Shown: positions 3,805-6,197, counted from the stretch's first letter. The stretch is 6,197 nucleotides of DNA from a virus (IMGVR_UViG_2537562019_000017); one strand, 5' to 3'. The notes: generated by a model from the sequence alone, not told the origin. A program made the numbers and translations.

Positions 3805-3948
3805 TCAGAAATGAGACAAACGTGCAGTATTACCATCAGGAATCTCTAAGCCAACACCAATTTCATTATAGTATCCCTGACCATTGACCTTATTACGCTG
3901 GCGAGCACCAAGCATTTTACCTTTTACAAAAAGACCATAATTAGACAT
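3805..3948 (-). pseudogene. Junction-truncated chimeric copy of the small gV-like gene (47 aa), copy 3
   Basis: Copy of 1974..2117 offset by 1,831 bp. Confidence 0.5.
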
Positions 3949-5179: not shown

Positions 5180-5632
5180 ATGAGCAACAACTTCAACAGT
5201 AATGGCTACCCGGAAGAAATGGCAGAAGACATAGACTTACAGCGGGCAGAAAGGATAAAAAAAGCGATCCTAAGCAAATTCACATACGAAAGGATGGAAG
5301 AACTGTCTGGCATCAACATTGGCACACTGAAACGGATCGCAAACGCACAGAGGGATGCGAAAATCAGTGAGCTGGAAAAAATTGCTGAAATCACTCAGAC
5401 AGACATATTTGAACTGATTTTTGGCTCCAGTAGCAGTGATATCTACGATTCCAGCAAACGCTTCTTTGAGACGAGAAGTAAAGATGCGGCTCAGGCGGCT
5501 CAATTCATCATCTACAATCTTCGTACCCTTGATGATGAGGACATCCTTTGTTTGGGGAGGGTTTCGAGTGCCTTGCAAACAGCAACAACATCAAGAAAAT
5601 GGGATGAGCTTTTCGGGAAGAAGAAAGGCTGA
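5180..5632 (+). CDS. XRE-family HTH transcriptional regulator, phage repressor-like, copy 3
   Basis: Identical translation to copies 1 and 2; ATG at 5180. Confidence 0.75.
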   Translation: MSNNFNSNGYPEEMAEDIDLQRAERIKKAILSKFTYERMEELSGINIGTLKRIANAQRDAKISELEKIAEITQTDIFELIFGSSSSDIYDSSKRFFETRSKDAAQAAQFIIYNLRTLDDEDILCLGRVSSALQTATTSRKWDELFGKKKG

Positions 5633-5651
5633 GTCTCAGAAATGAGACAAA

Positions 5652-5676
5652 CGTGCAGTATTACCAACACTGCACG
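5652..5676. other. Inverted repeat / hairpin (8-bp stem CGTGCAGT...ACTGCACG, 9-nt loop ATTACCAAC) spanning the right array boundary
   Basis: Read directly from the sequence. The left arm lies inside the repeat unit (also at 1990..1997 and 3821..3828); the right arm exists only in the right flank. The ACCA junction microhomology (5663..5666) is in the loop. Lies 20 nt downstream of the repressor stop; no adjacent U-tract. Confidence 0.6.
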
Positions 5677-5716
5677 TTCTGGATTGAGCGATTTTTAAAC
5701 ACCAGAAAAAGGGTAA

Positions 5717-6115
5717 ATGATGAACAAAACAGTGTATGTACCAAGCTACTTCCAGCCTATCTACAAAGAAGTAACCATCAAAGTTCCTACCGGAAACACA
5801 AAACGATTCCTGGGTCTCATCGACATTGAAGAAAAAATCCGAAAAAGAGAAGTTATTCAGGATGGCTGGTCTGATTGCCAGATTGACGGGGAAAGACTCA
5901 ATGAAGATGTTGGTCGAGCCATTAATAAACTTAATCGGGAAGGGTATGAGGTTATTTCAATAACCCCTGCTACCTCAGGAAGCTGGGCTTATAAATATAA
6001 ACAAAACAGTATTCGTAATGGAAACGGTGATGGCAGTTATGGATATGGTTACGGTTATTCATACACCGAAGGCGTTATGATTCTGGCAAAGAAAATTGAG
6101 AAAGAGGACGTCTGA
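5717..6115 (+). CDS. Hypothetical protein, 132 aa, with a Gly/Tyr low-complexity segment (GNGDGSYGYGYGYSY)
   Basis: ATG ATG start at 5717/5720 with an AAGGG RBS upstream. No N-terminal hydrophobic signal sequence. The C-terminal part (REGYEVISITP...GVMILAKK) is vaguely reminiscent of small DUF4177-like proteins, but I cannot confirm this without a search. Confidence 0.6.
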   Translation: MMNKTVYVPSYFQPIYKEVTIKVPTGNTKRFLGLIDIEEKIRKREVIQDGWSDCQIDGERLNEDVGRAINKLNREGYEVISITPATSGSWAYKYKQNSIRNGNGDGSYGYGYGYSYTEGVMILAKKIEKEDV

Positions 6116-6117
6116 TA

Positions 6118-6197
6118 ATGGATTTTATCCGTAAAACTTTGGGTGGATTAAAAGCAAGTTATTATATCCGTCACTTCGTTTTTGGTGCATTAATTTC
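6118..6197 (+). CDS. Hypothetical protein, N-terminal fragment (runs off the window); hydrophobic N-terminus suggests a membrane protein
   Basis: ATG at 6118, two nt after the TGA stop of the upstream gene, with a GAGGA RBS about 10 nt upstream (translational coupling). Translation MDFIRKTLGGLKASYYIRHFVFGALI... Confidence 0.45.
   Translation, partial: MDFIRKTLGGLKASYYIRHFVFGALI

Follow-up and report, generated by a model that had tools for sequence, protein, structure and literature searches.

A variable slot of an Escherichia coli filamentous prophage encodes a protein distantly homologous to the colicin E1 immunity protein

Introduction

What does a filamentous prophage carry in the short stretch between its regulator gene and its attachment region, and what might such genes do for the phage and its host? 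The question is raised by a piece of viral DNA of 6,197 nucleotides (IMGVR_UViG_2537562019_000017; hereafter the window, meaning the whole stretch analysed), in which three copies of an 1831-bp unit are followed by a stretch with two genes, ORF A and ORF B. The slot and its unassigned ORFs are already known, as a review describes two ORFs beside the RstR-like regulator that vary between YpfPhi and CUS-1 and lists their function as unknown (PMC4266046). Phages of the CUS-1/YpfPhi type bear on the fitness of both pathogenic E. coli and Yersinia pestis, and the slot ORFs are listed without a function. The databases, records and literature that we searched contained no description of a link between B and colicin immunity, of the spread of B without a toxin gene, or of the A family motif. 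An earlier note on this DNA had read positions 5717–6197 as a translationally coupled two-gene operon of phage accessory cargo, with a low-complexity Gly/Tyr stretch in the first protein and neither gene recognised; we followed up these claims by computational analysis.

Results

ORF A and ORF B are genuine protein-coding genes under purifying selection, as indicated by dN/dS values of 0.05–0.11 for ORF A and 0.10–0.16 for ORF B against copies with 69–83% nucleotide identity. ORF A occupies 5717/5720–6115 on the plus strand and encodes 132 aa from 5717 or 131 aa from the ATG at 5720. The spacing of its AAGGG Shine-Dalgarno sequence (5709–5713) favours this second ATG and every ORF A homologue begins with MNK, so the product is probably 131 aa long. 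The stop codon TGA of ORF A lies at 6113–6115 and ORF B starts two bases later, at 6118, on the same strand; its first 26 codons (6118–6197) lie in the window before the gene runs off the end. The Shine-Dalgarno sequence of ORF B, AGAGGA as read from the sequence, is at 6103–6108 within the 3′ end of ORF A. The gene pair and its close spacing are confirmed, with the first product probably one residue shorter than the 132 aa first given. Window positions 5600–6197 are 100% identical in 12 complete E. coli chromosomes. The complete ORF B (120 aa) and the prophage context were taken from a 100% identical E. coli record, NZ_CP024240.1 (L001; ORF B at 12519–12881), which supplied the full downstream sequence that the earlier note had called for, including a third ORF and an attP pair. 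In RefSeq, both ORF A (WP_000981410.1) and ORF B (WP_000345758.1) are named "hypothetical protein".

The operon is larger than the two genes first proposed, for a third small gene, ORF C, lies directly 3′ of ORF B beyond the window (L001 12893–12961). It has 22–24 codons, a single hydrophobic helix and its own purine-rich Shine-Dalgarno sequence, and it accompanies the locus in E. coli, Pectobacterium, Brenneria and Photorhabdus alike. Its sequence is MSMETGVAIIILLVIVGKLIGL in E. coli, MALETAVGIIFLLVIVGSYIGIGK in both Pectobacterium and Brenneria, and MDLSTGIVIIILLVLVSNYLGIGK in Photorhabdus; the reading frame is kept across 67% DNA identity, and RefSeq has no annotation for it.

A and B are carried by a filamentous prophage of the CUS-1/YpfPhi type, which is inserted at dif in E. 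coli, beside hipA. Its gene order in L001 is secretin, Zot, DUF2523 (pVI-like), a pIII-sized gene, coat genes, G5P, gII, the regulator array, A and B, followed by hipA, and the gII/X rep, G5P, Zot, DUF2523 and secretin genes all lie between the prophage ends. RefSeq annotation and Pfam matches thus give the inovirus gene set together with an RstR-like regulator. An intact, exact 28-bp dif marks one end (L001 526–553), and at the other end an inverted dif-like pair follows ORF B and ORF C (L001 ~12971–12998 and 13039–13066). As single-stranded DNA, the region of this pair (L001 12950–13080) folds into a forked hairpin (z = −5.06), so that both the folded attP of the CTX type and integration at dif are found in this prophage. 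An intact dif with an inverted dif-like pair is the layout expected of an integrated CTX-type, Xer-dependent filamentous phage. With dif on one side and the folded attP pair on the other, A and B lie within the prophage ends. The YpfPhi/CUS-1 phage group and its XerC-dependent integration at dif have been described (PMC4266046). The A-B pair replicates along with the rest of the phage genome; E. coli 82.0312 has two tandem copies of the complete prophage, each with a diverged A-B (~78% DNA identity). The same layout of rep, regulator, A and B occurs on short IMG/VR contigs and on a 9.3-kb Brenneria contig that has the gene set of the phage.

Sister prophages differ in what they amplify. In ERP001 (L064 10242–13134), the full prophage is followed by a short element that consists only of an 81-aa ORF, rep, regulator and cargo and is reminiscent of RS1 of CTXphi. 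Strain 82.0312 (L004 1–10842) has the whole-phage tandem, and the strain of the window amplifies only rep, the truncated G5P gene and the regulator. In E. coli SCU-101 (L065 10855–11175), hipA at the prophage end is cut down to its N-terminal domain, which suggests a deletion at the phage-host junction.

Two hairpins separate the regulator from ORF A. On the minus strand, each 1831-bp unit has a replication gene of the gII/X family together with a truncated G5P gene, and its plus strand encodes an HTH regulator; the last regulator copy ends at 5632 and is the sole copy that adjoins the A-B operon. Hairpin 1 (GTCTCAGAAATGAGAC; 5633–5648, plus strand) lies directly 3′ of the stop codon of this copy, and its sequence is kept across four E. 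coli prophage variants with different regulators and different cargo. Hairpin 2 (ACGTGCAGT-ATTACCAAC-ACTGCACGT; 5651–5677, plus strand) is a conserved cis element and possibly an origin or a terminator; its loop (ACCA, 5663–5666) is also the right-hand boundary of the 1831-bp array. Folding of 5625–5725 as RNA gave z = −4.0. A consensus scan additionally picked up a weak terminator-like stem followed by ATTTTT at 5675–5690 on the plus strand (L001 12076–12091). Transcription from the regulator into A must pass the hairpins and this weak terminator-like site, which counts against co-transcription. A scan of the 85-nt gap between regulator and A found no sigma-70-like promoter.

The junctions of the array all fall at a 4-bp ACCA microhomology (170–173, 2001–2004, 3832–3835 and 5663–5666), of which one partner lies within the G5P gene (170–173) and the other in the loop of hairpin 2. 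This loop, AGTATTAC, resembles the nick-site nonanucleotides of HUH rolling-circle Rep proteins. Given this likeness, the array may be the outcome of faulty initiation or termination at the plus-strand origin of the phage.

The slot that holds A and B, between the RstR-like regulator with its hairpins and the attP hairpin, is variable. Sister prophages at the same dif carry other cassettes 3′ of the same conserved hairpins. These cassettes encode a 140-aa multi-transmembrane protein and, behind it, either a 110-aa or a 363-aa one (L064 9122–9933; L065 9090–10714); the 140-aa protein is 99% identical between the two strains and the 110-aa partner is soluble. None of the three proteins received a Pfam or PADLOC assignment. 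The conserved intergenic element is matched by 138 records, and the A-B cassette occurs in 14 of 5426 complete E. coli genomes. A housekeeping or core-genome gene, the finding that the earlier note had named as fatal to its proposal, was rejected on this count.

Outside E. coli, the cassette is found both with phages and with their remains. In Kosakonia, the A-B pair closes a tailed prophage, directly behind its tail-fibre genes, where morons are classically found. Pectobacterium (L005) and Photorhabdus (L007) have kept A, B and the attP half; gII fragments are all that remains of the phage in Photorhabdus, and phage genes were not detectable at the Pectobacterium locus. On the Pantoea plasmid pAR24_B (L002), A-B adjoins a secretin fragment. 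The persistence of A-B(-C) with an attP half or a secretin fragment after loss of the prophage suggests that the cargo is retained for its own sake. A DNA search of a phage collection gave no match, and a protein search of the same collection matched one Pseudomonas phage. The proposal of phage accessory cargo is thus borne out by the position of A-B inside the prophage ends, its tandem duplication with the phage, the variable slot and the tailed prophage of Kosakonia.

ORF B, which the earlier note did not recognise, is by profile comparison distantly homologous to the colicin E1 immunity protein (ImmE1). The B of the window itself has no Pfam match. Among 30 members of the B family, seven match colicin K immunity (PF17500; best E 0.0029) and four match colicin E1 immunity (PF03526; best E 0.013), all below gathering thresholds. 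We took a reference ImmE1 encoded beside cea on a ColE1-type plasmid and built an alignment of 10 ImmE1 sequences. Against this alignment, the B family scored 95.2% in hhalign (E 2.9e-8) over 93 columns (B 12–110, Imm 2–107), and against the single ImmE1 sequence it scored 94.5%; BLASTP of B against ImmE1 gave E 8e-6 over 56 aa. The aligned motifs include YY.(K/R), FG, (C/Y)PY..(F/Y)..E.I, AK, LC and A.P.GL. The score of the B-ImmE1 match was 49.8, compared with 13–15 for reversed alignments and at most 21.2 for 30 column shuffles; the failure of these controls indicates that the match is not merely one of hydrophobic composition. The alignment spans nearly the whole of both proteins, with the signal mainly in the N-terminal two thirds. 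B is therefore a distant branch of the E1-type immunity superfamily, outside the curated families PF03526 and PF17500.

The predicted structure of B is consistent with such a placement. An AF2 model (pLDDT 76) has three long helices (13–35, 43–71 and 76–119), and with 120 aa and three predicted transmembrane helices B has the size and the predicted helix number of the E1 type. This type comprises three-transmembrane inner-membrane proteins that give immunity to colicins E1, Ia and K and to pyocin S5, and immunity proteins to pore-formers work through helix-helix contacts in the membrane (PMC10906532). Two other roles for B were considered and rejected: that of a holin, as a filamentous phage does not lyse and the B-carrying tailed phages have their own holin, and that of a small transporter of the GtrA or SMR type, for which there was no Pfam match.

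At least 141 homologous clusters belong to the B family, and all are unnamed or "hypothetical" except one Xenorhabdus homologue, called "colicin transporter" in UniRef. This label was rejected as a function and served only as a lead. Several NCBI plasmid records give the name "colicin transporter" to genuine ImmE1 proteins, which explains the odd label on the B homologue; the misleading name spreads to distant homologues. RefSeq also gives a shortened ImmE1 CDS (228 bp) at a locus where the full 113-codon ORF is intact (L151 546–887).

The B family travels as cargo on mobile elements without a toxin gene beside it. We inspected about 15 contexts for a colicin-like gene, in E. coli, Pantoea, Pectobacterium, Brenneria, Photorhabdus, Xenorhabdus, Variovorax, Pseudomonas, Kosakonia, Salmonella, Providencia and Xylella. 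No pore-forming toxin gene adjoined B in any of them, so that the E1-type arrangement, in which the immunity gene stands beside that of its cognate pore-forming colicin, was not seen in these contexts. A B homologue is encoded on 66 viral contigs in IMG/VR, mostly of ~20–70 kb; in the contigs that we read, B lies between replication and lysis genes and the contigs have the appearance of tailed prophages. B also occurs in a Pseudomonas temperate phage and in three inovirus lineages (E. coli/Brenneria, Xenorhabdus and Salmonella), where it is always downstream of the small regulator and divergent from rep. In the Salmonella inovirus, B follows an unrelated 109-aa protein. Conjugative plasmids and one ICE carry further copies, several of them directly 3′ of an HTH regulator, and the Variovorax B adjoins a two-partner-secretion locus. 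Homologues are additionally found on Bacillus plasmids, where colicin-type toxins are not expected, and the function of the family may thus be broader than, or other than, bacteriocin immunity.

ORF A is predicted to be a soluble, beta-rich protein, and no signal peptide or membrane segment was seen on reading its sequence. The Gly/Tyr stretch pointed out in the earlier note is present, but it is a conserved motif rather than a low-complexity run. Across 31 homologues from several phyla, G111, Y112, G113, S115 and T117 of the GNGDGSYGYGYGYSY stretch are invariant, and Y114, Y116, E118, G119 and V120 are nearly so. This near-invariant GYGYGYSYTEGV motif is the most conserved part of the family, and short family members have little beyond a helix, a strand and the GYGYGYSYTEGV hairpin. 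A matches phrog_15841 (E 3e-92), a PHROGs entry without an assigned function. The family comprises 128 close clusters; an exhaustive search by profile raises this to 472 (clustered at 50% identity), and the family spans Gammaproteobacteria, Betaproteobacteria, Bacteroidota and others.

Family searches gave little to assign a function to either protein. For A, no informative fold or family match was found in Pfam, NCBIfam, PADLOC or PHROGs; for B, Pfam, NCBIfam, PADLOC and PHROGs returned only matches to unassigned families or matches below threshold. Searches of PDB sequence profiles gave no match, and no component model of PADLOC 2.0 matched A or B at E up to 1. Fusions are few in the A family and tell little about it (to a zinc ribbon and, in one homologue, to a C-terminal membrane segment). 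Residues 49–88 of A (helix and strand) weakly match DUF4177 (PF13783) in 7 of 31 family members (best E 0.0036), and one homologue bears the name DUF4177 in UniRef; the match reaches 16.7 bits against a gathering threshold of 25, which leaves A outside the family, and hhalign of A against PEG 446, a published DUF4177 protein, gave 1.6%.

A is a stand-alone family that occurs on mobile elements and in defence-island-like neighbourhoods. Across 59 genome loci with A, no conserved partner was found and no other neighbour was common; B is adjacent at three loci only (Pectobacterium, Brenneria and Photorhabdus), so that A and B, presented as a pair in the earlier note, are not an obligate one. More than 50 genomes have A without B, and A is encoded by 5 of the 66 viral contigs with B. 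An obligate toxin-antitoxin pair was rejected, as A and B occur apart. In Aeromonas, A lies beside HEPN together with a Gabija-like ATPase or with Thoeris ThsA/ThsB; in Elizabethkingia, type I RM and a YhcG nuclease accompany it on a conjugative transposon; and in Castellaniella, it is on an integrative element with TacAT. The NgoMIV RM system neighbours A in Pseudomonas viridiflava, DUF6602 and DUF4145 do so at other loci, and the Paraburkholderia copy is in another inovirus. By association with such neighbours alone, a role of A in defence or counter-defence is suggested.

Discussion

The A-B-C genes may form a lysogenic-conversion ("moron") cassette in which B is an orphan immunity protein against a pore-forming toxin, a reading to which we give an even chance. 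As a predicted three-helix protein, B would reside in the inner membrane and, by analogy with E1-type immunity proteins, would neutralise the membrane-inserted channel helices of an incoming pore-forming toxin, for which a colicin E1/K/Ia-like bacteriocin or a similar effector is the candidate. Lysogens would then survive attack by competitors, and the phage would gain by protecting its host. Because no promoter-like site was seen in the 85-nt gap, B probably owes its expression in the lysogen to read-through from the regulator gene. A would be a separate cargo gene, possibly defence-related, that is only incidentally coupled to B in Enterobacterales.

A wider proposal goes beyond bacteriocins, and we consider it unlikely. 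According to this proposal, the B family would make up a large class of so far unrecognised membrane "shield" proteins, carried by all kinds of mobile elements without a cognate toxin and guarding, not against a single colicin, but against membrane-inserting invaders in general, including phage entry proteins; in Enterobacterales, B would have been coupled to A, whose GYGYGYSYTEGV beta-hairpin is without a known counterpart, as a new repressor-linked exclusion system of two or three components.

The arrangement of the locus also recalls lambda cI-rexA-rexB, and A and B, perhaps with C, could form a repressor-linked exclusion or abortive-infection module, although we find this rather improbable. 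A would serve as a cytoplasmic sensor and B as a membrane effector that collapses the membrane potential or blocks entry on infection. Such a module would fit the co-directional position of A-B behind the phage regulator with hairpins between, the 2-nt gap with the Shine-Dalgarno sequence of B inside A, and the movement of the pair as a unit between inovirus and tailed prophage. The neighbours of the A family (Thoeris, Gabija-like, HEPN, NgoMIV RM and DUF4145) and the C-terminal membrane segment fused to one A homologue point the same way. However, A and B are mostly found apart (B beside A at 3 of 59 loci, A on 5 of the 66 contigs with B), the Salmonella inovirus places B after an unrelated 109-aa protein, and neither RexA/RexB nor PADLOC models were matched in Pfam and PADLOC searches.

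B alone might instead exclude superinfecting filamentous phages, and possibly other invaders, by blocking membrane insertion of the pIII C-domain or a Tol-dependent step shared by filamentous phages and group A colicins, much as its homologues bind colicin helices inserted in the membrane; we regard this as improbable. Filamentous phages and group A colicins share TolQRA, and this common route speaks for exclusion by B, as does the occupation of the same slot in three inovirus lineages (E. coli/Brenneria, Xenorhabdus and Salmonella). Phage-borne B genes nonetheless lie mostly on contigs of ~20–70 kb that look like tailed prophages where read, and others are on plasmids and ICEs. The partial protection of YpfPhi lysogens from superinfection would agree with exclusion, but the review credits the repressor with this immunity, and the YpfPhi slot has different ORFs (PMC4266046).

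It is very improbable that A is a toxin or bacteriocin-like protein and B its cognate immunity protein in a self-contained toxin-immunity or addiction pair that keeps the prophage stable. The order and close coupling of the two genes do resemble toxin-immunity pairs, B is homologous to an immunity protein and a 66-aa DUF4177 protein has been reported to have antibacterial activity (PMC11322243), which the weak DUF4177 matches of A bring to mind, but the wide occurrence of A without B (more than 50 genomes and 472 stand-alone clusters), unexpected for a toxin that needs B, makes this the least likely of the rivals, A has no signal peptide or membrane segment that we could see in its sequence, the DUF4177 likeness is below threshold (1.6% in hhalign), and E1-type immunity targets helical channel domains and A is predicted to be beta-rich.

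With B read as orphan immunity, a colicin-immunity homologue in the cassette would be a concrete benefit, as lysogens may resist pore-forming bacteriocins in the gut. The B family is widespread on phages, plasmids and ICEs, with no toxin genes beside it where we read the context, and this points to orphan immunity against membrane-attacking toxins as something that mobile elements commonly carry. Its partner family, A, has an invariant Gly/Tyr motif and defence-island neighbourhoods and offers a clean candidate for functional screening.

Comparison with known systems places the cassette near several of them. A shares a weak, sub-threshold likeness with DUF4177 and differs from it by long beta-hairpins and the GYGYGYSYTEGV motif. 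Like lambda rexA-rexB, A-B combines a soluble protein with a small multi-helix membrane protein, encoded co-directionally downstream of a prophage regulator (cI in lambda), but there is no sequence similarity between the two systems and A and B are not an obligate pair. B resembles ImmE1 in length (120 versus 113 aa), in its three hydrophobic helices, in the collinear profile alignment and in common motifs. It differs in lying below Pfam thresholds, in its ~28% identity and in having no colicin or lysis gene adjoining; ImmE1 is found on Col plasmids, whereas B is found on phages, conjugative plasmids and ICEs across Proteobacteria. YPO2271/2272 of YpfPhi and orf1/orf1a of CUS-1 are alike to A-B in phage type, in the regulator-side slot and in number, being two ORFs (PMC4266046). 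They are different genes; the review describes them as ORFs without database homologues (PMC4266046), whereas large families exist for both A and B. Finally, ctxAB of CTXphi and, on our reading, A-B are both cargo that benefits the host, and each lies next to the attachment region of a filamentous phage that integrates at dif and has a folded attP of the CTX type (PMC4266046). The toxin genes ctxAB follow zot at the other end of the phage genome and encode a secreted toxin, whereas A-B follows the regulator and encodes a cytoplasmic protein together with membrane proteins.
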